DNA of 64,000 nucleotides from positions 64,703-128,702 of the forward strand of contig CAYVDC010000002.1 in NCBI GenBank assembly GCA_964450735.1. The letters are read 5' to 3'. A model generated the notes under the pieces. That model was not told where the DNA came from and searched no databases. It worked only from the letters and a program-made list of their open reading frames with translations. A program made the position numbers and the translations under genes. Positions 9,149 through 54,114 of the stretch are shown piece after piece (within the stretch, counting starts at the first letter, position 1; each line of letters starts with the position of its first letter). Origin of the DNA: an uncultured Candidatus Saccharibacteria bacterium. Lineage in GTDB: Bacteria; Patescibacteriota; Minisyncoccia; Phycocordibacterales; UBA9973.

Positions 9149-9242
9149 AGAAATCACTTTAGCATATATGCGTAATTTTGTCCTTTCTCAAACGTCACCA
9201 ATAGCAAGTAGGGCCGAACACTAATATGGTATTATTAACAAC

Positions 9243-12037: not shown

Positions 12038-12044
12038 TATCGTG

Positions 12045-20254: not shown

Positions 20255-20258
20255 AGTA

Positions 20259-21320: not shown

Positions 21321-21322
21321 GA

Positions 21323-22336: not shown

Positions 22337-22400
22337 ATTCACCTGTATAGTATACCGTGAAAAGAATAAATACAGAACCCTTTTTGTGGGTTTCTCGGCT

Positions 22401-24236: not shown

Positions 24237-24237
24237 G

Positions 24238-32427: not shown

Positions 32428-32451
32428 ACGATGGTGTAAGTATAACAATCT

Positions 32452-36169: not shown

Positions 36170-38983
36170 TTATCTAAAGAATCCGTGTCTACTGAGCCAG
36201 TTTTGACGATCAACGTTTACCTGGGCCCAAGCGTCTTGTGATTCGATCTTGGCTCGTCCGAGGTATTCTGCAACGCTTTCACCATTTCGCATTGGAACTG
36301 ATCTTTGCATGTGTCTCAAAGTCTCATAGAGAGGTCTTGCAGGATCATTTGCATGCTGCGCAAGGTATTCTTTGTCGATGTAGCGTACGTGACGATTCAA
36401 AATTCGGTCTACTCGTTCATTATCAAGCGGCTGAAGTGTTGGATCATGAGGCTGAGGCGCGTGATGAGTTGGATCATTGTAGTATTCGTCATCCCATTCA
36501 GCATCATATGGACCTGGTTTGCCTGGAGCATTGTCTGCAACTGATTGGCTTCCATGTTCCTGGTGGTGTTTGTACCAACGCTTGGTGTGGCCTTCTGCAT
36601 CATGGGTCTTGTACCAATGTTTGCTGTGATGTTTGCCGTCATGCCAATTATCGCGAGGATCATTCGGATCAGCTGGAGGCGGAGTAGGAGCAGGAGTATC
36701 ATGTGAATGATCGATGTGGCTCTGGAACTGGTTGTGATTCAATCCGTTATTGCCCATAAATCCGTTGGCATTAGTTTTGCCAAAGTTTGGGTCTTGCGGA
36801 TCATGAGTAGTGATGCCACTTCCAAAGTTTGGATTCTGAGGAGCAGCAGGAGCTGCTGCTGGAGCTTGTTTATAGTCGACATAGCGTTCATTGGTCTCAG
36901 CACCGTACGTTGCATTTCCTTTAGCATCAGTAGTTATAAGATTGTGGTCCTCGGCTGCACCACTAGCATTTCGCAAGCTGTGCGATACAACATTTCCATG
37001 ATCATCAAAGGTAATACCCGATCCCTCGAGCATGTTCAAGCTTTTACCAGTGCTATCTATGCCGCCAAATTCTTTTGCGAGCTGAAGTGGAGTCTTATCC
37101 AAAATATGCTGGTAACCGGAAGGAATTTTGCTTGCGTCAATAAGTTTTCCGTCTGCCCCAGTGTAAGCAGCTTTAATGTTGTCCTGCACATGTTTCCAAG
37201 TCGCGATAGCTCCATGGCTGTCGTACTTTACTTCGGCGAGTGGCTTGTATATATGTGTATCAACTGGTGCTGGAGGTGGAGTCGGTGCAGCAGGAGGTGT
37301 ATTCTTTATTGGATCTGGCGCATCTGTCTTTGCAGCGTGCTTATCGTCGCCATCTCCCATAAGTTTGTGATACCATTTTGAAACAAAACCTTGGTTTTCT
37401 GGTGTGCCACCCTTTACGTTGTCATGTGAATGATTAACATCATGATTTCCAGCGCCATGTTCTGCTGCATTACTGCCGCCCAAACCAAACCATCCGTTAT
37501 GTCCCACGGCATTGAGTCCAGCACTTGTTGCGCCCATGGTTACGCCTCGGATGACAAAGTCTGCGATAAGGTGTTTGAGTCGAGCGTTCTGTTCAGCGTC
37601 CATTCTTTTTTGAACAGCTGCTTCAAGTGCTTCGAATGACTTCTGATCCATCATTCCCTCATTAAACATTCCTACCTTCTCTCTCACCATTCCTTGTACT
37701 TCCTGAGCTCCTTTTTCTTGGATTTTCTTTACTGATTTTTCTGCGCTCGTGAAAAAGTTTTTAGCGGATACGGCAAGTTGTCCAGCAGCTCCACCTGCGA
37801 TGATTCGAGCTGCCCGGGTTGCGCCATATCCAAGCACGCCAATTGTAACTCCCTTTGCCGCAACCGCCGCGAAGCCCATAGCGAGAACCGTTGAAGTAGC
37901 CATTCGAACTGGTTTCGGGATTTTTGTGTAGTATTCCGCAGCAGTCCTTCCAATGCTTCGAATGCGTTCAGGAACAATCGGTTCGATGAGATCTTTTTTT
38001 GCTTGGAGTTCAGTATAGATCATGATCTCAATCTCTGCAGGTGTTGAACCGCCTCTAATCATTTCGTTTACTTTTTCGCCGAGGAATTTCTGGTATACCT
38101 TCTCAGCATCAACATTTTTGTCGATGAGCTTTTTCCCCTCTTCCGTATCAGGTGCGAAGAATAAGCTCTCCGCTTTTGTTCTTCCAAATATTTTGCGCTC
38201 TACTTTTGCTTGCCAGCCCATCTGTTTTTCGAGGTTTCCGTATGCTTCAAAATACGCTGTCTTTGCTTCTTCAAGGTTCTGCGCTTCTACCCAGTTTCCG
38301 TTTCCTACTTGTGCAGGTGCGCCGGTGGGATTTTGTTGTGGTCCGCCATTATTTGCTGCACCCTGGGCTCCTCCAGATGTATTTTGTTGAGTTCCAGAAG
38401 TTGTCTTAGTCTTCTTTTTTGGGCCTCCTGATGTAGTTTTTTTCGAACCCTTCTTGTTGGTCGTATCTTCTGGGTCGGCTGCTCCCCCCGCTCCACCAGG
38501 AGCAGTTGCGTCAGGATCATCTACTGGTTGATCTCTCAAAGCTTCCATGTGCGCCAAATTCTCCTCGCTGTAAGGCGCCTCGTATTTTTCTCCAACACCT
38601 TTTTTTGCTTCAGGTGTAGCGGTTGCCTCATTTGATGAAGCTTCTGCATCCTCGTCTTTTTCTTCTGTTCCTTTGCCGTGCTTCTTCTCGAAATCCTCGG
38701 CTTCTTGTTGGGTTTCTGCTGCTGATTTTTGTAACTCAGCTTCTGCAGCTTCGGTTTTGGTATCAACCTTTGTTGCGATTTTTGGGTTTTTCTTTGCTTG
38801 GGCTTTTTTCTTGGTTTCCTTTCCGATCTTTTCTATATTCGCCCCAAGGGTAACTATCATATTATTGAAAGCCTCCTTTGCCTTGAATTTTACCGCTTCT
38901 TTTCTAAATCGATTAAGCTCAGGTCCGTCTTTGGCCGAAGCGATCTTTTCATTAATATTGTCTTTTGTGATTTTTTCTGACAT
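36170..38983 (-). CDS. Large membrane protein with His-rich and Pro-rich extracytoplasmic C-terminus (937 aa), unknown function
   Basis: ATG start. About 330 aa N-terminal K/E-rich region with a GGxxTSGGxKKKTKTT stretch. Two Gly/Ala-rich hydrophobic segments (..TSTVLAMGFAAVAAKGVTIGVLGYGATRAARIIAGGAAGQLAV.., ..IRGVTMGATSAGLNAVGHNGWFGLGG..). His clusters (HDVNHSHDNV, HIDHSHDTP, HHSKHWYKTHDAEGHTKRWYKHHQEHG). Confidence 0.55.
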   Translation of the reverse strand: MSEKITKDNINEKIASAKDGPELNRFRKEAVKFKAKEAFNNMIVTLGANIEKIGKETKKKAQAKKNPKIATKVDTKTEAAEAELQKSAAETQQEAEDFEKKHGKGTEEKDEDAEASSNEATATPEAKKGVGEKYEAPYSEENLAHMEALRDQPVDDPDATAPGGAGGAADPEDTTNKKGSKKTTSGGPKKKTKTTSGTQQNTSGGAQGAANNGGPQQNPTGAPAQVGNGNWVEAQNLEEAKTAYFEAYGNLEKQMGWQAKVERKIFGRTKAESLFFAPDTEEGKKLIDKNVDAEKVYQKFLGEKVNEMIRGGSTPAEIEIMIYTELQAKKDLIEPIVPERIRSIGRTAAEYYTKIPKPVRMATSTVLAMGFAAVAAKGVTIGVLGYGATRAARIIAGGAAGQLAVSAKNFFTSAEKSVKKIQEKGAQEVQGMVREKVGMFNEGMMDQKSFEALEAAVQKRMDAEQNARLKHLIADFVIRGVTMGATSAGLNAVGHNGWFGLGGSNAAEHGAGNHDVNHSHDNVKGGTPENQGFVSKWYHKLMGDGDDKHAAKTDAPDPIKNTPPAAPTPPPAPVDTHIYKPLAEVKYDSHGAIATWKHVQDNIKAAYTGADGKLIDASKIPSGYQHILDKTPLQLAKEFGGIDSTGKSLNMLEGSGITFDDHGNVVSHSLRNASGAAEDHNLITTDAKGNATYGAETNERYVDYKQAPAAAPAAPQNPNFGSGITTHDPQDPNFGKTNANGFMGNNGLNHNQFQSHIDHSHDTPAPTPPPADPNDPRDNWHDGKHHSKHWYKTHDAEGHTKRWYKHHQEHGSQSVADNAPGKPGPYDAEWDDEYYNDPTHHAPQPHDPTLQPLDNERVDRILNRHVRYIDKEYLAQHANDPARPLYETLRHMQRSVPMRNGESVAEYLGRAKIESQDAWAQVNVDRQNWLSRHGFFR

Positions 38984-39411: not shown

Positions 39412-40071
39412 ATGACAAAGTTAACTTCCCTTTTCGCCCTACTGTTTGTACTTTTTACTGTTAACGCTTCAGCCCAAAATCCGGGCAATAGCTTGCAGTT
39501 CACAAACCAAACACCGCCGGTGGTGAACAAACCGGGTACTACCACATCCGATCCAATGCTGCAGCAAAGGTATGCACAACAAGCACAGCAGGCCATGATG
39601 GCATATATGATGGATTCAATAAGCAAAGCGCTTAGCCATGATATTGATGCCAAGGTAAATGCTAAAGTAACTGCTATTGTTGGCGCCAAGCTTAAAAAAT
39701 CCGAAGCGCAGCAAAAGAAAATAATTTCGGGTATGAGAAGTGAGCTTACCTCTACGCGCAATGATTTTGCGTATAAATTAAAACAAAACAATCAGGCTCT
39801 GGTAGATATGAACGCTTCGGTTGATGCCAAGAAAGCAGATATTGAGAAAACTCTTACCACCTTTCAGGAAACTGCTAAGGGTATAGACAAAAAACTTGAT
39901 TCTTTTAATTGGAAACTATACGGTACTTGGGGTGGAGTTGCTATTCTGTTTATAATTTTGATTTTGGCTGGATTTAAGCTGAACACCAGAATTAATTTAG
40001 CAAGCACAAAGTATGACGCTAATATGAATAAATTAGTTGCCGACTACAACGCACGTCACAACCCAAGCTAA
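39412..40071 (+). CDS. Secreted/C-terminally anchored hypothetical protein (219 aa), lone plus-strand gene inside the minus-strand block
   Basis: Signal peptide MTKLTSLFALLFVLFTVNASAQN; Q/A/K-rich helical body; C-terminal TM helix (WGGVAILFIILILAGF). The gene appears more AT-rich than its neighbours by eye. Confidence 0.55.
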   Translation: MTKLTSLFALLFVLFTVNASAQNPGNSLQFTNQTPPVVNKPGTTTSDPMLQQRYAQQAQQAMMAYMMDSISKALSHDIDAKVNAKVTAIVGAKLKKSEAQQKKIISGMRSELTSTRNDFAYKLKQNNQALVDMNASVDAKKADIEKTLTTFQETAKGIDKKLDSFNWKLYGTWGGVAILFIILILAGFKLNTRINLASTKYDANMNKLVADYNARHNPS

Positions 40072-40142: not shown

Positions 40143-43100
40143 TTATGGTCGCAACACTCGTGGGAGCTTGTCTCCAAATCTATCTTTCATAGCTTTGTTA
40201 ACCGCTTCATCAATGCGACGTTCTTCTTCTGATACGATTCTTTCTCGTCGCTCAACATCACGCACGAACTTTAGTCTGCCGATATTCTTGTCTACGAAAC
40301 CTTCGTTCGAGACATAGCTCAGGTCGCCCTCCTCAATGTGGGTTGAGAATAGCGGGTCATCTTTTCTTGGGAAATTAATTCCTCCCTCAACTCTTATGCC
40401 CGTCCCGTCAGGAGTAACCATTTCATATTTAAACACAGAACCATATTGATCAAACCCTCGTAGTTTTAGGTTTCTGAATTTGAGACTTTCAGTTTCTGAC
40501 GATGCAAGCGTGTCCTTTAATACAGTAGAGATGAATTCAGTCATCTGTTCGGCAGTCACGGCTTCTGTTTCAAGATCACCCGCCTTTTTGTTTTCAGTTG
40601 TGTTCGCTTCAGAAGCTAAAAGATTTTCTGGTGTAACGTCTTTTGGTTTCTTTACGGGAGCAACGAGATTGTTAACTTCGTCCTGATTTGTTCGATACAG
40701 TAATCCTTCTGGTGGAGTAAGCGGCTCTTCTTTTTTTATTTTTTCAGCGATCTCTTGAAGACGTTCCTTGAGGGATTTAACAGGTGCTTCTGGCTGATTG
40801 GGCTCTTCAGTATTTTCTGGACCATCATCAGCTTTCTTTCCTGGAGCTAAATTTTCAGGAAGCGGCTCGGTTACTTCTTCTACTACTTCTTCTTTCTTCT
40901 CTTCCTCTTTTACGACAGGTTCTTCTTCCACTTCAACGACTGGAGCTTCTTGTGTCGCGGCTGCTGCTGGAGCTTTTGCTTTTGCATCTTTGATGATGTC
41001 GGACAAATGATTCTTATGGAATTCTGCCCACGTAAGTTCCTTTGGCTGCTCGCCCTTTGCCCCGTTCTGCAGGTAGTACGCCATATTGTAGAGATTGAAG
41101 TGGCGAAGAGACCATTCTTTCACTTCTTCAAGCGTGTTGCCTTTTGAGCCAAGCTTTTCAGTAAGGTCGTTGTATTCAACCATTACTTCTGCGTGCTTTG
41201 CTTCAATTTCCGCTGCGGTTAGTTCAAGTTTCTTGCCGAGGAGGTCTTTCGGCTTTTCATTTGTTCCAGTTCGCATCTTGCTGCGGTCAAGAATGCTCCA
41301 GTATGCTTTTGGATTATTTTTTATCTTTTCAAGTCCGGCGAGCTTTGAGGCCCAGGCGTTTTTTTCTACAGTAAGTACTTCAATTTTCTTTTCGAGATTC
41401 TTGAGTTTATCAGGAGTGTCGAAGCTGGTGTCTTTCTTTTTCTTTTCAATTGCCGCGAGATATGCGTCAATGTTTGCATTAATACGAGTGATGTTCGTTT
41501 CAATCATGTCTCGCACCCCAGCAATCTGGTTCTCATATGTCATGAGCACTCGGCTCTGAGAGTAGAGAATATCATTGAGTTCGTATTCTACTGTTCGTTC
41601 AGCTGCTGCAAACGATGTTGGAATGCTGATACCGATGAGGTTGGCCAACTGCTGTTCGGTCAATCCAATTTTTGAATTTGGATTTTCTTTGTCAGCTTGG
41701 CTGATTGCCATTCCTCCGCGAACAGGACGAATATTTGGATCAAATGCTTTGACATCCTCTATCCATGGACGGAGCTCGTCGCCTGGCTTGGAGAAGAAGT
41801 ATGATTTTGTGTCAGGCTGGTAGCGGCCGTATGCGTCATATCCCATATTGTATGCGGCATGGCTTCCGTGCGGGATTCTCCACTGGGCTTCATTGACTGA
41901 GTTTGGCTCGTAGAAAAGAACTCTTCCAAATCTGTTTGAGTATACTTTTCTTCCCTCTGCGATTGCTTTAGCTTCGTATCGTTCGACGTTGTAAATGCTT
42001 TTCTCTACGCGATTCTTTTCATTTTTGACAAGTTCGCTGATAGCTATTTTGCCATCTGGAGATTTCTTGATGTTTGGTCGATCTGGTCGTGTATCGGCAA
42101 TTCGGATTTCCATCTGTTCATCAGTAAATGGTTCGTACGGGTTTTTTCCTGCTTTGAAAAATTCAACAATGATTTCAGTCGGCAAAACATCTCGGAGTCC
42201 GAGGATTGTTTTCGGATATTCATTGCGGAACTGCTCCTTGCCTCCGCGAGGGTAAGACATGTTGTCGAAGTCAGTGACGAACTCCATGTACTTTTGCATC
42301 CATGGTTCGATGGTTTCGAGTTTACCAGAACGGTGGAGCACGCCCATCAAGATTTCAGCTGCAGATGTTTTGATTGAACGTCCTTCGAAGTGGTGATCGA
42401 ACTCCGCACGGCCTTCGGTGATAGTGGCGATTTCTTCTGATCCTCCCACATCGATCAAGATGCCGCGCTCGAATGTGCCGCCTTTTTCTATGGCAATGAT
42501 CTCTCTTCCCTCCAAGAGTCCTAATGAATCAAGAGTGTACAGTGCTGCTTTGGAGTCAGTATCGGGATTTTTGTGCGTTACAATTGGAACTGTCTTGTCT
42601 TCGAGAAGTTTGTTGACGATCTCGAGCATCTTTGCGTCAAGGATACGATTGAGTTCCCTGTTTGTAGGGCTCTGCTGGATCAAAGATTCTCTGATCTCTG
42701 CAATAGACATCTTGCTTCGCTTCTCAGCTTCGGCAATCTTTGCTTCTTTTGTTGTCAGTGTTTTGAACTTCCAATCAGGAATCTTGTTTTTGAGGTATTG
42801 CTCGGCAGTCGCAGCGTCTTGGGAGAGCTGGTACTCTTTGGAACCAACACGTTCATTGGTGGCTTTAGCGAGCAAATCTTCGAGTTCTGCCTCAGTTTTG
42901 CCCTTGAGTTTTGCTTCGCTGTGCCCTGCTGCCTTGAGTTCAGCAATGCGAAGTTCCTTGGCAAATTCTGCCGCTGCCTGTTTGTTGATCTTTACTTTTT
43001 CGTAGGATAGTTTTTCTTCAGTCGCTTCTGCTTTCTTTTCTTCTTCTCCGATCAGCTCAAATTCTCCCTCCGCAATATCGTAATTATCAGGATTAATTTT

Positions 43101-43505
43101 TTGCTTTTTTTGTGGTGTGTGAGTAACTTTTGCTTGGTTCGCCGACGCCGCTTTTTTCTTCCTTGAAGCTTCCGCTGCTTCTTTTTCGAGTCTCTCTTTT
43201 TTGGCGAGCAGTTCCTCATGTTCCTGCTTCATTGCATCGAACATGATCTTCATTCCACGTTTTGCTCGGTCAACTCCTTTTGCGTCTTTACTGGTTTCAG
43301 AAATTTTCTTTAGGAATGTGTATGCTGCGGCCTGAGGGTCGCTTTCTTCGGCTTCCAAAAAATTCTTGTACGCTTCTGAGTTTTTTCCAAATAATTCCTC
43401 GGCAATTTTTTTGTCAGCAGTCTGCTCTTTAAACCACTTCATTACTTCCGCCGCTGCGTCGTTTTTTTGCTCAGGTCCTGTTTGGTTGGGTTTTTTTTCT
43501 GCCAT
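40143..43505 (-). CDS. Giant soluble coiled-coil protein with internal DHH-family phosphoesterase-like motifs (1120 aa)
   Basis: No TM segment; extremely K/E-rich. Residues about 300-390 read ..TVPIVTHKNPDTDSKAALYTLDSLGLL..ILIDVGG..AEFDHHFEG.., which matches DHH motifs I (HxNPDxDS), II (D) and III (DHH). No clear GGGH (DHHA1) motif was recognised afterwards. Confidence 0.6.
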   Translation of the reverse strand: MAEKKPNQTGPEQKNDAAAEVMKWFKEQTADKKIAEELFGKNSEAYKNFLEAEESDPQAAAYTFLKKISETSKDAKGVDRAKRGMKIMFDAMKQEHEELLAKKERLEKEAAEASRKKKAASANQAKVTHTPQKKQKINPDNYDIAEGEFELIGEEEKKAEATEEKLSYEKVKINKQAAAEFAKELRIAELKAAGHSEAKLKGKTEAELEDLLAKATNERVGSKEYQLSQDAATAEQYLKNKIPDWKFKTLTTKEAKIAEAEKRSKMSIAEIRESLIQQSPTNRELNRILDAKMLEIVNKLLEDKTVPIVTHKNPDTDSKAALYTLDSLGLLEGREIIAIEKGGTFERGILIDVGGSEEIATITEGRAEFDHHFEGRSIKTSAAEILMGVLHRSGKLETIEPWMQKYMEFVTDFDNMSYPRGGKEQFRNEYPKTILGLRDVLPTEIIVEFFKAGKNPYEPFTDEQMEIRIADTRPDRPNIKKSPDGKIAISELVKNEKNRVEKSIYNVERYEAKAIAEGRKVYSNRFGRVLFYEPNSVNEAQWRIPHGSHAAYNMGYDAYGRYQPDTKSYFFSKPGDELRPWIEDVKAFDPNIRPVRGGMAISQADKENPNSKIGLTEQQLANLIGISIPTSFAAAERTVEYELNDILYSQSRVLMTYENQIAGVRDMIETNITRINANIDAYLAAIEKKKKDTSFDTPDKLKNLEKKIEVLTVEKNAWASKLAGLEKIKNNPKAYWSILDRSKMRTGTNEKPKDLLGKKLELTAAEIEAKHAEVMVEYNDLTEKLGSKGNTLEEVKEWSLRHFNLYNMAYYLQNGAKGEQPKELTWAEFHKNHLSDIIKDAKAKAPAAAATQEAPVVEVEEEPVVKEEEKKEEVVEEVTEPLPENLAPGKKADDGPENTEEPNQPEAPVKSLKERLQEIAEKIKKEEPLTPPEGLLYRTNQDEVNNLVAPVKKPKDVTPENLLASEANTTENKKAGDLETEAVTAEQMTEFISTVLKDTLASSETESLKFRNLKLRGFDQYGSVFKYEMVTPDGTGIRVEGGINFPRKDDPLFSTHIEEGDLSYVSNEGFVDKNIGRLKFVRDVERRERIVSEEERRIDEAVNKAMKDRFGDKLPRVLRP

Positions 43506-43517
43506 ATAAATGTAATA

Positions 43518-45065
43518 TTATTTTACCACACGTTCGAAATGTTCAAAAATCTTGTTGCGGCGAGCGATCTTCTTTTGGAGCTCCTCAAGTTCTTTTTCTA
43601 TTTCTTCTAGTTTTCTTTCTTTCTGTTCTTCAGGCTCGTTTGATTCTTCTATAGTTTCTTTTACTTCTTCTTTTTCCTCTACTTGCTCCTTTGGTGTTTC
43701 CGGTTCACTTGAATTCTCGGTCACTTCTTTTTTAGTTTGCTCCGCAGGTGTTTCTGGAATTGCTGGAAGATTTCGTTGCTGATCACCCTCAGCTTCTTCT
43801 TTGGCTGCTGCGTTAAGCTCTGCAACATCTTCTACACCGAGGTTTGTTTCAGGAATTTCAACCGTAGGAGTTTCAGGGATTTCTTCTGTTTCCTCGATTG
43901 GTGTTTCTTCAATTGCTGGAGCTTCTTGTTCTATTGGGGTGAACATGTAAGAGTCACCTTCCTCATCTGTCATAAGTACTGAATCAGTGTATGAATCCCA
44001 TTCTTTGAGGACGATTGCATCTTGCTCGCCATTCTCACTTTTTATTGCGATCTTGTATTTTTGCTCTTTTGGCAATGAAAGGATTCCCGTGACTGTCCAC
44101 TTCTCATTGTTGATATCAGTGTATGACTGTCCTCTTTCTAGTTTGAAAGCCGCATCTCCTGTGGTAAGCGTAAGAGAACTGATAGTGTATCGCTCTGGAG
44201 ATTGGTCAACGAGGTTTGCGGATTCAGGATCCATCACTCCGCTCACACTTCGAATAAGTGTCATGCGGTCGCCAAGGGTTCGCAAAACTTCTGAATTATT
44301 TTTATTTTCCCAGTCGCGGATATATACACGCTCATGTTCACCAAAAGCGTTTTCTACTTCAACAACAACCGAGCCATTATGCTCATCGATCTTGCCGATT
44401 TTCCACGGAGTATTTTTGCCATCCAGGAATGTTTGTCCGACATCGATGCTGATGATTCCATGAGAATGTTCAAGATCAATTCCTTCATGTGTTGCATGAG
44501 CAGGAACTGACAACCATAATCCGATTTCCTTTTTTCCGTATATGACTGTGATATGGCCTTCTTCCGAAGATGTAATTTTACATCCAGTAAGATATTTCCC
44601 TTGTTCGTCTACGACGTCGATTGTTCGAGGACCGTTATTGATCTTCTTGACCATAATCGGTTCATCTTTCTCGTTATAGAGTATGGTACCGATTTTTATA
44701 CCTAAATCTTGGATAGTCCCCATCTTCTCTTCTTGTTGTGGAGATTTGGTTTTAGGAACGAATGGAACTTTTTCATCGCTAATGTCTGTCGGTATATTCA
44801 TGAGCTTGTCTAGATCAGCTGAAAGCTTTTTGATTACCGCCTCGGTTGTATAGTCCTTGTATTGATACAAGAGGGATTCGATCTTTGCAGTATTTTTCTG
44901 CTTAACAAGTTTAGTAAGATCTCCTAGTAAGACAGTGTTAAATAATTCGGCTGTATTTTTGTTCTGAATAGACGAAATAGCTTTTCCAACTTCCAGGGAA
45001 ACATCTATGTCTTTTTTGGTTTCTACCGTATCGTTTTTTTGAACGATTGGGGTTTTTTCTGGCAT
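43518..45065 (-). CDS. Acidic hypothetical protein (515 aa)
   Basis: ATG start; no TM segment. The C-terminal 150 aa are E/P/T-rich (..EETPIEETEEIPETPTVEIPET..) ending in a K/E coiled coil. Co-oriented 12 nt upstream of the 1120-aa gene. Confidence 0.55.
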   Translation of the reverse strand: MPEKTPIVQKNDTVETKKDIDVSLEVGKAISSIQNKNTAELFNTVLLGDLTKLVKQKNTAKIESLLYQYKDYTTEAVIKKLSADLDKLMNIPTDISDEKVPFVPKTKSPQQEEKMGTIQDLGIKIGTILYNEKDEPIMVKKINNGPRTIDVVDEQGKYLTGCKITSSEEGHITVIYGKKEIGLWLSVPAHATHEGIDLEHSHGIISIDVGQTFLDGKNTPWKIGKIDEHNGSVVVEVENAFGEHERVYIRDWENKNNSEVLRTLGDRMTLIRSVSGVMDPESANLVDQSPERYTISSLTLTTGDAAFKLERGQSYTDINNEKWTVTGILSLPKEQKYKIAIKSENGEQDAIVLKEWDSYTDSVLMTDEEGDSYMFTPIEQEAPAIEETPIEETEEIPETPTVEIPETNLGVEDVAELNAAAKEEAEGDQQRNLPAIPETPAEQTKKEVTENSSEPETPKEQVEEKEEVKETIEESNEPEEQKERKLEEIEKELEELQKKIARRNKIFEHFERVVK

Positions 45066-45100: not shown

Positions 45101-45406
45101 TTACCCTACCTGGCTCATGATTGCGTCTCGTTCTGCTTTGAGTCCTGCTGCTTCTTCGGCAACAATGGCCTCAAAGTTAGGTACTTCGCTGTTCATGAAA
45201 GCCAACAATTCATCAGGTGCAGTGTTTGTTGAGAGGAGAGATTCGAGCTTGTCCTGAGCCTGTTCGCTCATGCCTGGGGCAACGCGCAAGATTACTGCCT
45301 GGAATACCAAGCCACCGATTTTCTCAACAAGCGCATCCTGTTCTTCGGGAGTTGCGTTTTCGAGGTTGTAGGTTTTGATGAACATGTCGCGAAGTGTGGT
45401 ATCCAT
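45101..45406 (-). CDS. Small helical hypothetical protein (101 aa)
   Basis: MDTTLRDMFIKTYNLENATPEEQDALVEKIGGLVFQAVILRV..; first gene of the 36.2-45.4 kb co-oriented block; preceded by a 300-nt intergenic region. Confidence 0.45.
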   Translation of the reverse strand: MDTTLRDMFIKTYNLENATPEEQDALVEKIGGLVFQAVILRVAPGMSEQAQDKLESLLSTNTAPDELLAFMNSEVPNFEAIVAEEAAGLKAERDAIMSQVG

Positions 45407-47016: not shown

Positions 47017-48552
47017 ATGTCATATGCTCGCATCAACAGCGCTCAACCGCACTTGCTTGAAGGAAAGATAGTTACTATCGAAGTGGATTTATCTCGAGGA
47101 CTGCATTCTTTTTCAATTGTCGGTCTTCCTGATAAAGCAGTTGAGGAGGCAAAAGACCGCATGAGCTCTGCAATCAAAAACAGCGGCCATGATTCACCGA
47201 AAGCCAAGAACCACAAAATTGTCATCTCGCTTTCTCCAGCAGATATCAAAAAAGAAGGCGCCTATTTTGATCTCGGCATGGCGCTTGGATACTTGCTTGC
47301 TGCTGAGGTTATCGAGTTTGATCCGGCAGGAAAATTATTTCTTGGCGAGCTCAATCTCTCAGGAGACATTTTGCCAATCAAAGGCACGCTCGCATTAGCA
47401 GAAGCTGCACGCAATGGCGGAATGAAAGAAATTTTTGTACCAATGAAAAATGCTGCAGAAGCTGCATTGATCGAAGGCCTCGTTGTGTACGGAGTGCAAA
47501 GCTTGAGGGAAGTGATTGATCACATAACATCCACCAAAAAGAAATCGAAACTAATAACCCCAACGCCAAAAACAGAAATCTCTGTTGCACCAAAGCAATT
47601 TTCTGTAGACATCAAAGAGATTCGTGGACAAGAAGGAGCAAAACGAGGACTAGAGATAGCGGCGGCGGGCGGGCACAATATTGCAATGTCGGGCCCGCCC
47701 GGAACTGGCAAGACGATGCTTGCTCGAGCGTTCATCTCGCTCTTACCGGAACTCACACTTTCAGAAATGCTCGAAGTTACTCGCATCCACTCTATCGCCG
47801 GCAATCTTGATGCCACGCTTGTCACGCACCCGCCGCTTCGTTCGCCGCACCACACTGCTTCGTATGTTTCTATTATTGGCGGCGGAACGATTCCTCGGCC
47901 AGGCGAGGTTACGCTGGCGCACAAAGGCGTGCTTTTCCTTGATGAGTTCCCTGAGTTTGAAAAGAGAGTGATAGAGTCGCTCCGCCAGCCGCTGGAAGAT
48001 AATGTTGTTACTATTTCCCGCGCACGAGGTTCTGCTTTGTTTCCTTCAAATTTTATTTTAGTAGCAGCTATGAATCCATGCCCGTGCGGATATCGAGGAT
48101 CGCGCATCCGTGCTTGTAGATGCAACGGCACGGACATGGCTCGGTATGGCCGCAAACTCTCCGGTCCGATTCTTGATCGTATTGATTTATGGGTAACAGT
48201 TGCGCCAGTTGAATATGAGAAGTTGATGGAGAATACAACAGAAGGAGAATCAAGCGATATGGTTCATGCAAGAGTTGCGCGTGCTCGTACGATCGCCAAA
48301 GAACGATTTGCTAATCACCCTAACAACATCCAAGCCAACTCAGACATGCGCGCCAAAGACATCGCAAAATATATAGTTCTTGGTGATGAAGTTAAAAAAA
48401 TTCTTCATGACAGCGCCAAAAAATTGCAGCTCTCAGGCCGTGCCTATCATCGAGTGATCAAATTGGCGAGAACGATCGCTGACCTCGCTGGTTCTCAGAC
48501 AATAGAAATTTCTCATGTGCTTGAAGCATTGCAGTATCGACCCAAGATATAG
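47017..48552 (+). CDS. comM: YifB/ComM-family Mg-chelatase-like AAA+ ATPase (competence protein ComM homologue)
   Basis: N-terminal Lon-protease-like domain (..GKIVTIEVDLSRGLHSFSIVGLPDKAVEEAKDRM..), Walker A GPPGTGKTMLA, Walker B VLFLDEFPEF, C-terminal Mg-chelatase ChlI-like tail; 511 aa. Confidence 0.85.
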   Translation: MSYARINSAQPHLLEGKIVTIEVDLSRGLHSFSIVGLPDKAVEEAKDRMSSAIKNSGHDSPKAKNHKIVISLSPADIKKEGAYFDLGMALGYLLAAEVIEFDPAGKLFLGELNLSGDILPIKGTLALAEAARNGGMKEIFVPMKNAAEAALIEGLVVYGVQSLREVIDHITSTKKKSKLITPTPKTEISVAPKQFSVDIKEIRGQEGAKRGLEIAAAGGHNIAMSGPPGTGKTMLARAFISLLPELTLSEMLEVTRIHSIAGNLDATLVTHPPLRSPHHTASYVSIIGGGTIPRPGEVTLAHKGVLFLDEFPEFEKRVIESLRQPLEDNVVTISRARGSALFPSNFILVAAMNPCPCGYRGSRIRACRCNGTDMARYGRKLSGPILDRIDLWVTVAPVEYEKLMENTTEGESSDMVHARVARARTIAKERFANHPNNIQANSDMRAKDIAKYIVLGDEVKKILHDSAKKLQLSGRAYHRVIKLARTIADLAGSQTIEISHVLEALQYRPKI

Positions 48553-48558
48553 TGACGC

Positions 48559-48594
48559 AAAACAAAAACCGCACTTGCGTGCGGTTTTTGTTTT
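48559..48594. terminator. Bidirectional intrinsic terminator (comM versus the DksA-like gene)
   Basis: aaaacaaaaaccgcac-ttgc-gtgcggtttttgtttt: a long near-perfect palindrome with U-runs on both strands (approximate coordinates). Confidence 0.65.
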
Positions 48595-48954
48595 TTATTG
48601 TTGTACGTGCTCGATCTTGGTGCGTGCTGCTGGATTTGCTCGCAATCGCTCGATGTCGATCTCTTCGCCAGAGACTTCGCAGATGCCATAACCGCCCTTT
48701 TCGATCTTCTCGAGCGCATCGTTAACATCTTTGAGTCGTGCCTCAAGGGTGTTCATGGTTGCAGTTCGTTCTTCATATCCCTGGAATCGGTCTGCCATGT
48801 CGTTTTCATCGGAGTCCTCTCCCACGTCTACTGGAGGAGGAACGGCCTCCCAGTCCTTGTTTGCGGGATTCATAATGCCGAGATTTCCGAGTTCGTCCAT
48901 AAGGACCTTCTTTTCTGCTTCGAGTTTTGTCTTGAATTCTTGTGTGTCTTTCAT
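48595..48954 (-). CDS. DksA/TraR-family protein (non-canonical zinc finger)
   Basis: 119 aa; coiled-coil N-terminus with acidic tip (..DVGEDSDENDMAD..); C-terminal ..GGYGICEVSGEEIDIERLRANPAARTKIEH.. resembles the DksA/TraR C4 finger but has only one Cys. Confidence 0.6.
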   Translation of the reverse strand: MKDTQEFKTKLEAEKKVLMDELGNLGIMNPANKDWEAVPPPVDVGEDSDENDMADRFQGYEERTATMNTLEARLKDVNDALEKIEKGGYGICEVSGEEIDIERLRANPAARTKIEHVQQ

Positions 48955-48977
48955 GTGCCTAATGGTAGCACGTTCTT

Positions 48978-49952
48978 TTAATGGCGCAAGGTATTGGCCG
49001 TGAGGCGGTTGAGGACTTCTTCAAGGGTGTCGGCATTGTTAGTGATGATAAGGGTGCTCTTGTCTTCACCGATAAATGTGTAGAACAATACGACATTTCC
49101 TTTGCTATCAAGCAGGGCCCGAGTGTCTTGGTTTTTGATTGTCTTGTCTTTGAATTGTGCAGCAAAGAGCGCGGCACCATCCCCAGAAACATCGATATTA
49201 AAGACATTATAGAGCTCGTCGAACATATGCTGTTCCCATTCCAGCATGCCTGCGAGAGCGGTTGTATATGAATTTGTCTTGAATGCAAAGAAGAGTCCGT
49301 TGCCATTGAAAGAATGAACAGCAAGCGTGTATGTTGGATCAAGCGATCTGACTAGTCGATCAGGTACAACTGATTCGATAGATTTGAAGAATTCTTCGGT
49401 GGTGAGGATGTGCTGAGCGCTTGTTCCTGTTTCCTGGGTAAAAGGCAGGATTCTTGCGATTGTGTTGATGGTCTGTGTCGCATTTTTGTATTGCAGCCCG
49501 ATCTGGGTGCGAACATTGTCGCGTGTGAGGCCGGTAATGTTCAATCCAGAAACAGAATCAACTTTGATGATGCTTGATGAGCCAGTAGGATTTTGAGTGA
49601 TCGGAACTGTTTGTGGAACGCTCCGATATAGGGCGTAGCCGATTATTCCTAAAGCAACAAAAACAATACAGAGTCCCCCGATTATATACATTCTGTTTTT
49701 GCCTGACTGAGGATCAACATTTTCTTTCTCTCGCTCGTTGCGCTCGTTTTCGGCCATGGCGATTTTGATAAGCGATCCCTCGCCGGACTTGATCGTGTCA
49801 GCTAAATCGCTTTGAAATGTTCGCAGTGTTTGCAGGTTTGCGTTTTTGCCGGTTAGGCCGAGCGGCGCGCGCGAAACCTCCGAAGAAACTGGAGTTTCTT
49901 TTTCCTCATCCACTCTACCGTTTAGTTTTGGCATGCCCTCGAAACCTTCCAT
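48978..49952 (-). CDS. Single-pass membrane protein with extracytoplasmic domain (324 aa), unknown function
   Basis: ATG start; cytoplasmic N-terminal about 85 aa, TM helix MYIIGGLCIVFVALGIIGYALY, then a roughly 220-aa domain; 23 nt upstream of the DksA-like gene. Confidence 0.5.
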   Translation of the reverse strand: MEGFEGMPKLNGRVDEEKETPVSSEVSRAPLGLTGKNANLQTLRTFQSDLADTIKSGEGSLIKIAMAENERNEREKENVDPQSGKNRMYIIGGLCIVFVALGIIGYALYRSVPQTVPITQNPTGSSSIIKVDSVSGLNITGLTRDNVRTQIGLQYKNATQTINTIARILPFTQETGTSAQHILTTEEFFKSIESVVPDRLVRSLDPTYTLAVHSFNGNGLFFAFKTNSYTTALAGMLEWEQHMFDELYNVFNIDVSGDGAALFAAQFKDKTIKNQDTRALLDSKGNVVLFYTFIGEDKSTLIITNNADTLEEVLNRLTANTLRH

Positions 49953-49985
49953 ATAGATACATCATACTCTATTTGGCATAAACAG

Positions 49986-50014
49986 AAAAATGCTCGATAC
50001 TATCGAGCATTTTT
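49986..50014 (-). terminator. Intrinsic terminator downstream of pnp
   Basis: aaaaatgctcgata / tatcgagcattttt palindrome, with a U-run on the minus strand (approximate coordinates). Confidence 0.5.
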
Positions 50015-50030
50015 CTTGGTCTGTGTGCAG

Positions 50031-52211
50031 TTATATTTTTGGTGCAGCTGACGGATTGATTAGTGCTGCTGGAGGTGTGGGCGGCTTGATGAAGTTAGGA
50101 TCTGCTTCTTTGATTGAGAATGAGATGCGTCCTTTTTCTTTATCTACGTTTACTACCTTCACTGGAACCTTCATTCCCTCTTTCAAAACATCGGCTACGC
50201 GAGCAACTCGGAACGGTGCGATTTCAGAAATATGCACAAGTCCGTCAGCGAATTCTGAGACTTTCACAATTGCTCCAACTTCGATGATCTTCACGACAGT
50301 GGCTTCAGTGATATCGCCAACTTTCCATTCGTGCGTCATTTCCTGAATGATTGCGAGAGCAGCATCAGCTGCTCCGTTCTTTCCAGAAACATAAATCGTT
50401 CCGTCGTCTTCAATAGTGATTTCAGCGCCAGTCTTTTCGCGAATAGCTTTCACTGTTTTTCCTCCTGAACCGATGATCAAACCAATCTGATCAACCTGTA
50501 CTTTTGCAACCAAGATCTTTGGAGCGTTTGGAGAAATATCAGGACGAGCTTTTGGAATTTCCGCTTCGATGACATCGAGGATCTGCATGCGAGCTTCGCG
50601 TGCTTGTGCAAGAGCTTCTTTCAAAGCCTTCACTGGAACTCCGCCGACTTTGATGTCGAGCTGGATTGCCGTGACGCCTTCGCGTGTTCCTGCAACTTTG
50701 AAGTCCATGTCGCCGTAGTGATCTTCCGGTCCTTGGATGTCGGTAAGGATTTTGTACTCTGTAGGATTTTCAACATTAAGAATAAGTCCCATGGCGATAC
50801 CCGCTACCGGGCGCTTGATTGGAACACCGCCATCCATGAGGGCAATTGATGATGCACAGATAGATGCCTGTGAAGTCGAACCGTTTGAAGCGGTTGATTC
50901 TGATACGACACGGATGGTGTACGGGAAATCCATCTTATCTGGGATCACGGGAGTGAGCGCTTTCTCAGCGAGCATTCCATGGCCCATTTCGCGGCGGTTC
51001 ATTCCGCCAACGCGTCCTGTTTCACCGGCAGAGTATGGAGGGAAATTGTAATGGTGCATGAAACGCTTGGTTCCACGGACTTCCATTCCTTCGATGACGA
51101 GTGCTGTTTCAGGTCCGCCAAGTGTAAGGATTGAAAGCACATGAGTCTGTCCTCGGTAGAAGATTCCTGTTCCGTGCAATACAGGTGAAATGCCTCCTGC
51201 TTTTGCATAGAGTCCTCGAACTTGGTTCATTGCGCGTCCATCAGCACGGCGATTTTCCTTGAGAGCTTTTTCATGCACGAGATCATCGAGTGCTGCTTCC
51301 AAATAATCTTTTGAGTGTGAAACAAGTTCTTCATTGTCTGGAAACTTTTCGGCGACGATAGTATTCCATTCGTGTTCAAGCTCAAGGAATTTTGTTTTTC
51401 CAAGTGTTGGGTCGTCTCCTTCTTTCAAAAAGATAGCGTCAGTTTTTGTTCCAACAGTTGCCTTAAAGAGATCGCTGACTTCAGCAGGCACTTCAGGTTT
51501 TGGGAATTCCAATTTCTTTTTGCCGAGCTCAGCAATGATTCCTTTCTGCCAGTTTTCGATTTCCGCGATGTGCTTCATTGCAAAATCAATGTAGCTACCG
51601 ACATCTTCTTCCTTGTCTTCGTATGCCATCGCTTCGATCATGACGACATTGCCGTCTTTTCCGCAAACCGTAAGATCAAGTTCATAATTTGTTTCGCCAG
51701 TGTTTGCAGCGAATGGATCGTACACAACTTCTGTTGATCCTTTCACTCGTCCGATATGCGCTGCGCCAACTGGTCCTGCCCATGGAATATCAGAAACTCC
51801 GAGTGCGAGTGACGCTGCGTTGATTCCCAAAACTCCTGGGTCGCATTTTCCAACTGAGAGAACAGTGACGATTACCTGAACTGCATTTTTGATGTGATGT
51901 GAGAACAATGGTCGGATCGTTCGGTCGATAATGCGTGATGAAAGCACGGCCTCATCTGACGGTCGTCCTTCTCGCTTGTTATATTGACCGCCGAGGATCA
52001 ATCCAGAAGCGTAAAACTTTTCCATGTATTCGACAGTGAGGTTAAAGAACCCTCGATTCTCTTTGCCGTCCTTTGAAATGACGACGTTCGCAAAAACGAC
52101 AGTGTCTTCACACTTGAGCATGACCGAGCCATTAGCCTGATCTGCCAAGTCAGAAAACACGGCAGTCATCACTTTTCCGCCCACTGTGAGCGTAAATTCC
52201 TTGCTATGCAT
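50031..52211 (-). CDS. pnp: Polyribonucleotide nucleotidyltransferase (PNPase)
   Basis: 726 aa; two RNase PH-like domains, KH (..IGLIIGSGGKTVKAIREKTGAEI..) and C-terminal S1 domain (..KVGDITEATVVKIIEVGAIVKV..); N-terminus MHSKEFTLTVGGKVMTAVFSDLADQANGSV typical of PNPase. Confidence 0.9.
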   Translation of the reverse strand: MHSKEFTLTVGGKVMTAVFSDLADQANGSVMLKCEDTVVFANVVISKDGKENRGFFNLTVEYMEKFYASGLILGGQYNKREGRPSDEAVLSSRIIDRTIRPLFSHHIKNAVQVIVTVLSVGKCDPGVLGINAASLALGVSDIPWAGPVGAAHIGRVKGSTEVVYDPFAANTGETNYELDLTVCGKDGNVVMIEAMAYEDKEEDVGSYIDFAMKHIAEIENWQKGIIAELGKKKLEFPKPEVPAEVSDLFKATVGTKTDAIFLKEGDDPTLGKTKFLELEHEWNTIVAEKFPDNEELVSHSKDYLEAALDDLVHEKALKENRRADGRAMNQVRGLYAKAGGISPVLHGTGIFYRGQTHVLSILTLGGPETALVIEGMEVRGTKRFMHHYNFPPYSAGETGRVGGMNRREMGHGMLAEKALTPVIPDKMDFPYTIRVVSESTASNGSTSQASICASSIALMDGGVPIKRPVAGIAMGLILNVENPTEYKILTDIQGPEDHYGDMDFKVAGTREGVTAIQLDIKVGGVPVKALKEALAQAREARMQILDVIEAEIPKARPDISPNAPKILVAKVQVDQIGLIIGSGGKTVKAIREKTGAEITIEDDGTIYVSGKNGAADAALAIIQEMTHEWKVGDITEATVVKIIEVGAIVKVSEFADGLVHISEIAPFRVARVADVLKEGMKVPVKVVNVDKEKGRISFSIKEADPNFIKPPTPPAALINPSAAPKI

Positions 52212-52402
52212 ATATATAGTATGTAAGTCCCCGGACTTTAGTATTGAAACCGGTGTTTCACTACTACCTGTCCGAGGGCTTACGGAGCTTAAAAAGCTTA
52301 ATTAATAACATTCAAAATATACCACACAAGCAAGAAAACTCAATCGACGGCTTATTTGACACTACCTATAGATAAAGCTATTCTAAAAAGAAAACAGAAA
52401 CC

Positions 52403-52957
52403 ATGAAAAACAGCGACAGAACTCCTTTCAAAAACCAACAACTTTTGGCAGAAAACGGATTTGTATTTGATCCATTCAACAACTTCCCGATAGATATTAA
52501 CTTATCGCGGGTGGAAGAATTTGAGAAAAAATCTTACCGTGAACTTTTTAACTTACTAAAAGTTACTAAAGATTCTACAAAACGCTTATTGCCCGAACAA
52601 CAAATCGAACGTGATGAGATAACAATGGCATTGTTTAACAACATAACAACTGCTGAGGTTGATCCCATTCCCGTGGATGCTCCATTGCTTGCAAAAGGTG
52701 ACATTGTGGAAGTAAAAAGACTTGAGGACAGAAAACTCAACCCAACGTTCCATAAGCCTATTGCAAATGAATTCTTCCAGGTAATACCTAGTAGATACCA
52801 ACGCCGTGCACGCCAGCTACTTCTTCTGACTGGGCATTATTCCCAGGTAAACAGAACTACCTATGTAGCAGTATGCGCAGCACAAGGAGAAACCCTTGAG
52901 CTCGAAGCGTATCAGTTTTTAGATTCGTTACAAGTCCCCCTTGAACAGGCGGCATAA
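52403..52957 (+). CDS. Hypothetical protein (184 aa)
   Basis: Clean ORF with no overlapping competitor; no recognisable motif. Confidence 0.45.
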   Translation: MKNSDRTPFKNQQLLAENGFVFDPFNNFPIDINLSRVEEFEKKSYRELFNLLKVTKDSTKRLLPEQQIERDEITMALFNNITTAEVDPIPVDAPLLAKGDIVEVKRLEDRKLNPTFHKPIANEFFQVIPSRYQRRARQLLLLTGHYSQVNRTTYVAVCAAQGETLELEAYQFLDSLQVPLEQAA

Positions 52958-53018
52958 AGTATAACTACAGCATAGTATCTCATTCATAGCCCTGCACAAC
53001 AGCGGGGCTATTTTTTAT

Positions 53019-53543
53019 TTGACAAAAGTGATACGTGTGATAGTTTGTAGAAAAAAGACTTCTATGATAATCCAACTAGCTACAACGATAACTTCCCCAA
53101 TACAATCTCCAATCTTGTTAATCGCTACCCCGGTCATTGCTTTCAATGGGACACTGAGCACAAAACGCTATCATAAATTCAAAAAAGAAATGGAAAGCAA
53201 AGGTTGCGACTTTTCTTTTTTTCAGAAGCCTTTGATCCACCGCATAAAACAAAACGGAAATTTCGGACTGTTTTATTCGCTTAATGGTTTGGAAAATAAA
53301 AAGATGCTCGCGATTTTCTGGCACAACCAATATGCTAAACACGGAGAACGCTTGGAGGCGTATATTACCGCACTTGCATCAATCGAGCAGATCGTAAAAA
53401 CCGGAACAGCTTTTGATGACGATGTGACCATCGCTGTCGATCTTGCTAACGTTTGCCTTGGCGAAAGCATCAATAAGCAACGTGAGTGGCTAGATTTCTT
53501 TGCCAACTCAAAACGCGGATACGAAGTGTATTCCAAAATTTAG
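53019..53543 (+). CDS. Hypothetical protein (174 aa; start uncertain)
   Basis: ORF with several candidate internal starts (MIIQ.., MESKG..); no recognisable motif. Confidence 0.4.
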   Translation: MTKVIRVIVCRKKTSMIIQLATTITSPIQSPILLIATPVIAFNGTLSTKRYHKFKKEMESKGCDFSFFQKPLIHRIKQNGNFGLFYSLNGLENKKMLAIFWHNQYAKHGERLEAYITALASIEQIVKTGTAFDDDVTIAVDLANVCLGESINKQREWLDFFANSKRGYEVYSKI

Positions 53544-53570
53544 ATTTACCTACAACAAGAACTATTATAT

Positions 53571-53598
53571 AAAAGGCCGTCGCATGCGACGGCCTTTT
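53571..53598. terminator. Bidirectional intrinsic terminator (174-aa gene versus the NYN gene)
   Basis: Perfect palindrome aaaaggccgtcgcatgcgacggcctttt (approximate coordinates). Confidence 0.65.
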
Positions 53599-53610
53599 CT
53601 TCTATCTCTA

Positions 53611-54114
53611 TTATCTTCCGAGCAGATACTTTTTGGGATTCTCTGACATATCAATGAAGTCATCAACGACTTCTTTTAATTTCATACTTGTAGATTTTCC
53701 AAATGAAATCACTTCTACCTGCGTCATTGTCTGGAGATATTGCACAAGTGGAATAAAGTCACCGTCGCCTGATGCGAGAATAATTGCATCGAGTCGCGGC
53801 GCCATCTTGATAGCATCAACTGCCATGCCGACGTCCCAGTCTCCTTTCTTTGCTCCTCCTGCAAAAACTTGCAGGTCTTTTGTTTTTGTCTCAATGCCCA
53901 TTTTGGTAAGAGCATCGAAAAAGTTTTTTTCATCTCCTGCTTCAGAGGTGATAACGTATGCGATCGCGCGAACGAGTTTTCGTCCCGCTACTGCGTCTTT
54001 CAAAATCTGTGCGAAGTTTACGCGCGCCTTGTATAAGTTTCTTCCGCTGTGATAGAGATTCTGTGTGTCGATAAAAAGTGCGACGCGCTGTTCTTTGTGT
54101 TTGATTGCTGACAT
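53611..54114 (-). CDS. NYN-domain (LabA/DUF88-like, PIN-fold) putative ribonuclease
   Basis: ..RVALFIDTQNLYHS.. (acidic active-site start), ..AIAYVITSE.., ..GDWDVGMAVDAI.., ..ILASGDGDFIPLV..: the conserved Asp pattern of LabA/NYN domains; 167 aa. Confidence 0.7.
   Translation of the reverse strand: MSAIKHKEQRVALFIDTQNLYHSGRNLYKARVNFAQILKDAVAGRKLVRAIAYVITSEAGDEKNFFDALTKMGIETKTKDLQVFAGGAKKGDWDVGMAVDAIKMAPRLDAIILASGDGDFIPLVQYLQTMTQVEVISFGKSTSMKLKEVVDDFIDMSENPKKYLLGR

Follow-up and report, generated by a model that had tools for sequence, protein, structure and literature searches.

Background

Phosphoesterases of the DHH superfamily carry four motifs (I-IV), each with a conserved aspartate, and motif III holds the DHH triad (PMC5593865). 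In NrnA and RecJ, the second lobe (DHHA1) is marked by GGGH or GGH in the loop before the terminal beta-strand, Bacillus-type NrnA has RxRxR as its substrate-binding motif, and a hinge motion between the lobes is documented for NrnA, RecJ and pyrophosphatase (PMC5593865). The subject of this work is a protein of 1120 residues (hereafter the target), encoded on the minus strand at 40143..43505 of a 64-kb stretch of DNA (64,000 nucleotides; hereafter the window) from an uncultured Candidatus Saccharibacteria bacterium. Its residues ~300-640 are, on the predicted structure, a highly divergent yet intact two-lobed DHH/DHHA1-type core, and the target is an uncatalogued subfamily and architecture within the well-known DHH superfamily. 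The reading we favour, with moderate confidence, is that of an active, membrane-tethered cytoplasmic phosphoesterase belonging to a new DHH subfamily specific to the candidate phyla radiation (CPR).

For the cultivated saccharibacterium Southlakia epibionticum (S. epibionticum), the canonical NrnA-type DHH family phosphoesterase SEML1_0394 (K06881) is reported as essential, Orn and RecJ are both listed and both non-essential, and the words diadenylate, DisA, GGDEF and PgpH are absent from the annotation tables (PMC10633639). The same source lists SEML1_0073, a hypothetical protein of 603 residues beside S20, which has no Pfam match, a structure-based ECOD label of "DHH phosphoesterases" (Tables S1/S2) and transposon sequencing calls of NE/GD/GD; the main text mentions no DHH proteins, SEML1_0073 included (PMC10633639). 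In addition, two DUF5663 genes follow an essential helical orphan of 767 residues in that genome (SEML1_0161-0163) (PMC10633639).

With respect to CPR envelopes, genes of type IV secretion systems (T4SSs) are often found near dnaA, and these systems lack relaxases and are thought to have been repurposed (10.1101/2025.01.22.634366). In a 2026 preprint, which leaves DHH enzymes unmentioned, Patescibacteria are proposed to subsist on RNA from their hosts by means of PNPase (10.64898/2026.06.21.733656). Literature searches on DHH proteins, nanoRNases or DUF5663 in Saccharibacteria and CPR returned nothing on the family described here.

Motifs and ligand conservation

The target open reading frame (ORF) starts with ATG and is intact over 1120 codons plus stop. 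The identical protein is on record elsewhere, in an independent public assembly (a Logan contig of SRR12404947) and as an NCBI record. A first-pass annotation, made from the sequence of the window, had described three DHH motifs in the correct order in the middle of the protein, and these are present as described: motif I, HKNPDTDS (residues 311-318, with H311, D315 and D317; 42552..42575), motif II, ILIDVGG (residues 349-355, with D352; 42441..42461), and motif III, EFDHH (residues 368-372, with D370, H371 and H372; 42390..42404), all on the minus strand. Their assignment follows from the family alignment and from an hhalign comparison with RecJ, in which motif I is in register with DFDADG. 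Motif IV, FVTDFDN (D414 and N415; 42261..42281, minus strand), had been missed; it follows motif III at the spacing expected for DHH enzymes, and in the AlphaFold2 model it is found at the C-terminal end of helix 401-414, while D352 is placed at the end of a beta-strand.

Conservation was counted over 138 homologous domains aligned with MAFFT; some columns of the alignment have non-gap totals of 135 or 136. D317 is kept in all 135 non-gap domains and D315 in 133 of 135. Among the 138 domains, H372 is kept in 137, D352 in 136, D414 in 135, H371 in 131 and D370 in 128, with Asn in 7 at the last position. In the second lobe, R596 is kept in 132 of 136 and M599 in 119 of 138, and G597 is also conserved. 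These positions of the first lobe are the ones that define DHH motifs I-IV in the literature (PMC5593865). Among the eight full-length orthologues, D315, D317, D352, H371, H372 and D414 are invariant (8/8), so the Asp and His ligands, whose conservation had been proposed as a check, are near-invariant in close and distant relatives, D370 being partly Asn. A more distant member (P0011) has S-G-H in place of DHH. Given the invariant ligand positions, a degenerate domain appears unlikely. The core is also the best preserved part of the protein, with 44% identity among orthologues versus 17-26% in the flanks; neighbouring housekeeping genes are 59-96% identical.

Predicted fold of the core

The conserved core (residues 300-640; 41586..42608, minus strand) is predicted to begin with the DHH lobe (~303-420) and to end with a second lobe that resembles DHHA1 (~521-640); inserted between the two is a helical linker (~421-520), in which a long helix makes the connection. 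AlphaFold2 applied to residues 285-644 with a 41-sequence alignment yielded a model with a mean predicted local distance difference test (pLDDT) score of 91.9 and a predicted template modeling (pTM) score of 0.89. In this model, the inter-lobe insert has about 100 residues, including a helix of 28 residues (489-516) reminiscent of the one that joins the lobes in RecJ.

When the model was compared against the PDB with Foldseek, all 50 best matches were DHH/DHHA1 proteins, 44 of them with E <= 1e-3. They include PggH (the best, E 2.6e-6), archaeal pAp phosphatase, RecJ, RecJ-Cdc45, NrnA, DhhP, Rv2837c and TM1595. The alignments are 340-490 columns long and thus span both lobes. The template modeling scores are modest (0.35-0.48), which is probably due to hinge motion between the lobes. 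The pLDDT and the uniformity of the top 50 matches indicate a DHH/DHHA1 fold; together with the ligand conservation, they bear out the earlier claim of a DHH core in the middle of the protein.

In the second lobe, R596-G-G-M599 (41709..41720, minus strand; alignment and AlphaFold2 model) lies in the last beta-hairpin, and the family pattern at this place is R-G-x-M. In the model, this motif seems to occupy the structural site of the canonical GGGH.

The homologue family

Homologues were sought by an exhaustive phmmer (HMMER) search over 1.84 billion cluster representatives with a threshold of E <= 1e-3. This yielded 144 representatives, of which 58 reach E <= 1e-10, the lowest E-value being 1e-156. 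Nearly all align only to target residues ~300-625, and a local iterated hidden Markov model (HMM) finds a single domain of about 330 residues in every one of the 144; the core is the only part common to the family. A word-indexed protein search retrieved no relatives with the single sequence and 2 with the profile, against 144 by exhaustive HMMER; with E. coli RecJ as query, every protein it gave was 90% identical or more. Having missed almost the whole family, its negatives are not readable as an absence of homologues.

The family defined by this core is uncatalogued and is not caught by Pfam or NCBIfam; it has at least 144 clusters at 50% identity. Its members range from stand-alone proteins of about 340 residues, the size of NrnA, to more than 2000 residues; 32 of the 144 representatives have at most 420 residues and 28 have at least 1000. 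Every member that could be placed by taxonomy or gene context belongs to the CPR/Patescibacteria, and the only source-given name met in the family is "hypothetical protein [Candidatus Paceibacterota bacterium]". Among named genomes, the nearest loci belong to three Candidatus Saccharibacteria metagenome-assembled genomes (MAGs) and one MAG labelled Paceibacterota. The family HMM finds no paralogue elsewhere in the 64-kb window.

Short members are found in several housekeeping contexts. In L023/L024 the order is NYN-domain gene, family gene, PNPase, and ComM and XerC are close by. The L003 member is near PNPase, two genes away from ComM, those of L013/L014 lie upstream of S20 and diverge from RuvA, and that of L018 is downstream of trigger factor. 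A long member of 1240 residues (L011) is near RNase Y and an S1-domain protein. In the sequenced flanks of the short members beside S20/RuvA, trigger factor or PNPase, no T4SS genes were found.

Comparison with described DHH enzymes

In comparison with the class of NrnA, PggH, Rv2837c and TM1595, the target presents the same two-lobed fold, as predicted, and the same four motifs in the same order, its best structural matches are in this class, and short members of its family have the same size (340-380 residues). It differs in a sequence similarity below the Pfam thresholds, in the roughly 100 residues, a long helix among them, that are inserted between the lobes, in R-G-x-M rather than GGGH in the second lobe, and in the extra residues, ~300 N-terminal and ~480 C-terminal. 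Moreover, S. epibionticum lists a canonical NrnA-type gene alongside SEML1_0073, a probable but unconfirmed relative.

With RecJ and the archaeal RecJ-Cdc45 proteins (GAN), the target appears to share DHH and DHHA1 lobes joined by a long helix, motifs I-III are in register with E. coli RecJ, and these proteins give the longest alignments among the top structural matches. E. coli RecJ relatives carry PF01368, PF17768 and PF02272, whereas in the Pfam scan the target has no match to PF17768, the OB-fold domain that in RecJ follows DHHA1 and goes with a hole for threading ssDNA, and it lacks GGH; a canonical RecJ is also separately encoded in S. epibionticum.

SEML1_0073 is like the target in being a Saccharibacteria hypothetical protein with no Pfam match, and it is encoded beside S20, as are the short members in L013/L014. 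It differs in its 603 residues with an N-terminal DHH fold, and in its locus. It is a plausible candidate relative of the target family.

A conserved module and a gene fusion

The target is the last of three co-directional genes on the minus strand. The first is a DUF5663 gene of 101 residues (45101..45406) and the second is g515, an orphan of 515 residues (43518..45065) that ends 12 bp from the target start and has the same position in all close relatives. Despite this fixed position, g515 orthologues are only 25-48% identical. The g515 protein has no family match; its middle is beta-rich and its acidic, E/P-rich tail ends in a short K/E helix. On the other side of the target is giant937, a protein of 937 residues with one hydrophobic segment (365-385), encoded at 36170..38983 on the minus strand.

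Gene order is identical in five related contigs (L002, L005-L008): PNPase, g324, ComM, an M23 peptidase on the opposite strand, DUF5663, g515 and the target, followed, up to where each contig stops, by giant937, UvrD, KsgA, g292 and giant957. Across these contigs the housekeeping proteins are 59-96% identical, whereas the target, g515 and giant937 are 25-48% identical. The target orthologues in this clade have about 1020-1140 residues and evolve fast. Between the target and giant937, the window also encodes g219, a small membrane protein (39412..40071, plus strand), whose homologue was detected in L002, L005 and L006 and not in L007 or L008. A sub-threshold Pfam match of g219 to DotZ (E 0.004, 17 bits versus a cut-off of 27) is probably not meaningful.

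The association with DUF5663 extends further. In distant lineages, a DUF5663 gene is immediately upstream of long family members of 1606 residues (L010; DUF5663 at 207-512) and 1787 residues (L026; 3281-3595), and of the member in L027, where DUF5663 is found at 3122-3412 and a second copy lies downstream at 11822-12127. DUF5663 may serve giant CPR proteins more generally as a small partner.

The L027 member, P0062 (1264 residues, 8001-11795), consists of a DHH-like domain (33-418) fused to a giant937-like region (518-912). This region is collinear with residues 236-680 of giant937, hydrophobic segment included (78.6 bits in pairwise alignment). The surrounding frame in L027 reads M23, DUF5663, and then UvrD, KsgA, a g292-like gene and a giant957-like gene, with P0062 in the syntenic slot of the target; synteny up to the giant957-like gene is kept in L008 and L027. 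That the target and giant937 act together at the membrane is suggested mainly by this fusion, found in the same slot. The DHH domain would then be on the side of the N-terminal part of giant937, which is taken as cytoplasmic because neither the target nor giant937 has a signal peptide.

Such an arrangement recalls GdpP, a larger protein of several parts whose DHH/DHHA1 unit is kept at the membrane on its cytoplasmic side, as the target would be. In GdpP, the unit is joined to N-terminal transmembrane helices, a PAS domain and a degenerate GGDEF domain, whereas the target has no transmembrane segment and no PAS or GGDEF match in Pfam. Its putative tether, giant937, is encoded by a gene of its own, with fusion in some lineages only, and words for cyclic-dinucleotide cyclases are absent from the S. 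epibionticum tables.

Function of the target and alternatives

What was observed is a set of conserved motifs, a predicted DHH/DHHA1-like fold, a gene module kept across relatives and a gene fusion, whereas activity, substrate class, membrane tethering and any link with the T4SS are inferred. The target would be cytoplasmic, since it has no signal peptide or membrane segment, and would be held at the inner membrane face via giant937; g515 and DUF5663 would probably be partners as well. Its core would hydrolyse a phosphoester with two metals, as is usual for DHH enzymes, and short nucleic acids or nucleotides arriving or produced at the envelope would be the likeliest substrates.

Some observations weigh against this reading. 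Firstly, D370 of the DHH triad is Asn in 4/8 orthologues (P0005-P0008; L007, L008), and this substitution in half of them could signal relaxed catalysis in this clade. Secondly, the GGGH/GGH of DHHA1 is absent from the second lobe of the target and from the family alignment, hence substrate binding of the NrnA or RecJ kind is not to be assumed. Thirdly, tethering is suggested by one fusion together with synteny. Lastly, no threshold was reached on the target with Pfam (PF01368 DHH and PF02272 DHHA1), NCBIfam or PHROGs.

The last point deserves detail, given that the first-pass annotation had named the lack of a DHH HMM hit as evidence against itself, and the search with DHH/DHHA1 HMMs indeed gave none for the target. 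Scans of the whole target and of residues 281-660 with Pfam (even at E 1-10), NCBIfam and PHROGs contain no match, and phmmer of the core against PDB sequences returns noise only. Nevertheless, 6 of 41 relatives match PF01368 weakly (best E 2.5e-4), and this is the only Pfam family matched by more than one member; the target has no match to PF02272. When the family profile was searched against PDB sequences, the top match was 6mtz_A, an unnamed structural-genomics chain, across the DHH...D stretch (E 0.027), and the pGpG phosphodiesterase PggH was also listed (E 1.4). The hhalign comparison of the family profile with E. coli RecJ, the template being a single sequence, placed motifs I, II and III in register with a pairwise E of 0.023 and a probability of only 2%. 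Since some relatives match PF01368 weakly, and the tests of fold and conservation agree with a DHH core, the miss in Pfam is read as divergence rather than absence.

The alternatives, in order of weight, are a Cdc45-like scaffold, a nanoRNase or pAp phosphatase, a T4SS effector, a cyclic- or linear-dinucleotide phosphodiesterase, and chance motifs, the last being refuted. The scaffold is the best placed of these, yet we consider it unlikely. The DHH fold would be kept as a binding or structural module, as in eukaryotic Cdc45, inside a large helical and disordered assembly protein. Asn at D370 in 4/8 orthologues, the missing GGGH, the high rank of RecJ-Cdc45 proteins among the structural matches and the fast evolution of the long flanks are all consistent with it. 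Pseudoenzymes, however, normally lose ligand residues such as D315, D317, D352, H371, H372 and D414, which are invariant in 8/8 orthologues and kept in 95-100% of the 138 relatives. Furthermore, in family II pyrophosphatase and in RecJ the triad Asp is not among the residues that bind metal directly, and the stand-alone members of about 340 residues look like ordinary enzymes.

Alternatively, though we regard this as doubtful, the target could be an NrnA analogue with a housekeeping role, a nanoRNase or pAp phosphatase that completes the breakdown of RNA after PNPase. NrnA, PggH, pAp phosphatase and TM1595 are its structural neighbours, PNPase is 6.5 kb from the target, family members are near PNPase/NYN (L023/L024), ComM/PNPase (L003) and RNase Y with an S1-domain protein (L011), and the preprint on Patescibacteria living on host RNA via PNPase would give such an enzyme a setting (10.64898/2026.06.21.733656). 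The linkage with ComM, PNPase and NYN could reflect RNA turnover or be inherited gene order. S. epibionticum already lists an essential K06881 DHH phosphoesterase and an oligoribonuclease (PMC10633639), GGGH is absent, and about 780 extra residues and a membrane partner are not expected of a soluble housekeeping enzyme. The listing of a canonical NrnA-type enzyme, Orn and RecJ, without a diadenylate or diguanylate cyclase, in the S. epibionticum tables weakens both a simple nanoRNase role and a cyclic-dinucleotide role.

A T4SS effector nuclease, translocated into the host bacterium and degrading nucleic acid there, is improbable. The short family members in housekeeping contexts (S20/RuvA, trigger factor, PNPase) without T4SS genes in the sequenced flanks argue against a dedicated translocated effector, about 16 kb including KsgA and UvrD separate the target from virB4, and the fusion of the domain to a membrane-anchored protein in L027 fits a resident machine part better than cargo. 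These points outweigh, in our view, the co-directional gene run that reaches the T4SS genes near dnaA, the lack of a Sec signal, the disordered and fast-evolving flanks with a basic C-terminal tail, and the reported repurposing of relaxase-free CPR T4SSs (10.1101/2025.01.22.634366).

Still weaker is a membrane-tethered phosphodiesterase of cyclic or linear dinucleotides, in the manner of GdpP, DhhP or PggH, which is very improbable. Although PggH is the best structural match, DhhP and Rv2837c are among the top matches, and the putative membrane association recalls GdpP, the target has neither PAS or GGDEF domains nor GGGH, no cyclase gene was seen in the 64-kb window, and diadenylate, DisA, GGDEF and PgpH are absent from the S. 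epibionticum tables (PMC10633639). Chance motifs in a low-complexity protein, with which the lack of a curated HMM match would agree, are ruled out by the 144 homologues, the invariant motifs and the confidently predicted DHH-like fold.

Beyond the favoured reading of a membrane-tethered phosphoesterase, DUF5663, g515, the target and giant937 might together form an unrecognised CPR-specific envelope machine beside the origin-proximal T4SS, which would process host-derived nucleic acid on the cytoplasmic side. We put this forward as a long shot. If true, uptake from the host would be linked with nucleotide salvage in organisms unable to make nucleotides.

The CPR/Patescibacteria have small genomes full of large orphan proteins, one of which now has a testable biochemical handle in the form of a predicted two-metal site. 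The new family has DUF5663 and a membrane protein as recurrent partners, with a gene fusion that joins the DHH-like domain to the latter. Should nucleic acids at the membrane prove to be what the enzyme acts on, this would bear on how epibionts obtain nucleotides from their hosts; and if it is a third non-redundant DHH enzyme beside NrnA and RecJ, R-G-x-M in place of GGGH would widen the substrate-binding solutions of the superfamily.

Flanking regions of the target

The flanks had been described as K/E-rich with no membrane segment, and both statements hold: residues 1-290 contain 16% K, 15% E and 15% A, and the maximum Kyte-Doolittle mean per 19-residue window is 1.01, therefore the target is soluble, with neither a membrane segment nor a signal peptide. 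Its C-terminal tail is basic. A full-length AlphaFold2 model, built from an 8-sequence alignment, has a mean pLDDT of 67. The N-terminal region (residues 1-299; 42609..43505, minus strand) is K/E/A-rich and helical, with 22% identity among orthologues; in the model, residues 1-120 are helical with low confidence, 113-165 are disordered, and 156-302 form a series of short helices. Downstream of the core, the helical region of residues 641-843 (40977..41585, minus strand; 26% orthologue identity) is modelled as hairpins (632-843) with a pLDDT of up to 94. It is followed by an E/P/K-rich linker (residues 844-976; 40578..40976, minus strand), which composition and AlphaFold2 indicate to be disordered, and by a weakly conserved C-terminal part (residues 977-1120; 40146..40577, minus strand), which has a small alpha/beta domain and a long helix (977-1118 in the model) and no structural match. 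Outside the core, Foldseek with the full-length model matched nothing credible, whether in the N-terminal, the helical or the C-terminal region.

The first-pass annotation had called these flanks a giant coiled-coil scaffold. A crude heptad scan flagged only residues 641-787, with 101 residues (shuffled mean 13, shuffled maximum also 101), and no other part has heptad-like periodicity. The remainder consists of short helices, disordered linkers and the alpha/beta domain, the model containing helices of 8-45 residues and two disordered stretches (113-165 and 844-976). Hence, the earlier term is overstated, and the flanks are best called helical and disordered extensions.

Neighbourhood in the window

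The window is an origin-proximal chromosomal region, from a CPR bacterium of the Saccharibacteria-like type, with a T4SS of the published CPR kind. It encodes dnaN (12045-13142), dnaA (13362-14753) and yidC (17362-18081), followed by a T4SS-like block that begins with a PG_binding/PD40 protein (18629-20254) and continues with a CPR-type T4SS pilin (PF18895; 20259-21320), an ORF of 392 residues with a weak PKD-like match (21323-22501) and a VirB4/TraG P-loop ATPase (22401-24236). The recognisable T4SS genes span 18629-24885. Between VirB4 and KsgA is an orphan of 1070 residues without a Pfam match (26263-29475), which has many hydrophobic segments and is polytopic. In the same interval, giant957 (29575-32448) is an orphan of 957 residues, also without a Pfam match, with one N-terminal hydrophobic segment and syntenic homologues in L008 and L027. 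Both orphans may be unrecognised channel or surface components of the T4SS.

The target had been placed inside a secretion-system block. It does share a long co-directional gene run that continues into the T4SS genes near dnaA, but about 16 kb, including KsgA and UvrD, lie between virB4 and the target. Because KsgA and UvrD separate them, the placement inside the block holds in part only. Pfam, NCBIfam and PHROG scans found no homology of the target to a known T4SS component.

The window also encodes DUF5663, ComM, PNPase and a XerC-like recombinase, with the ComM/PNPase/NYN-domain neighbourhood at 47017-54114 and the NYN gene at 53611-54114. The GC content of the target gene equals that of the window, so the gene is not an obvious foreign island; horizontal acquisition was rejected given this match and the synteny kept with core genes. 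A promoter and terminator scan gave no signal above shuffles, and Rfam and tRNA scans of the window were empty. An ORF of 835 residues on the minus strand (2048-4555) has no Pfam match. As listed, the ORF of 392 residues shares about 100 bp with the VirB4-like ORF; the true VirB4 start probably lies further downstream.

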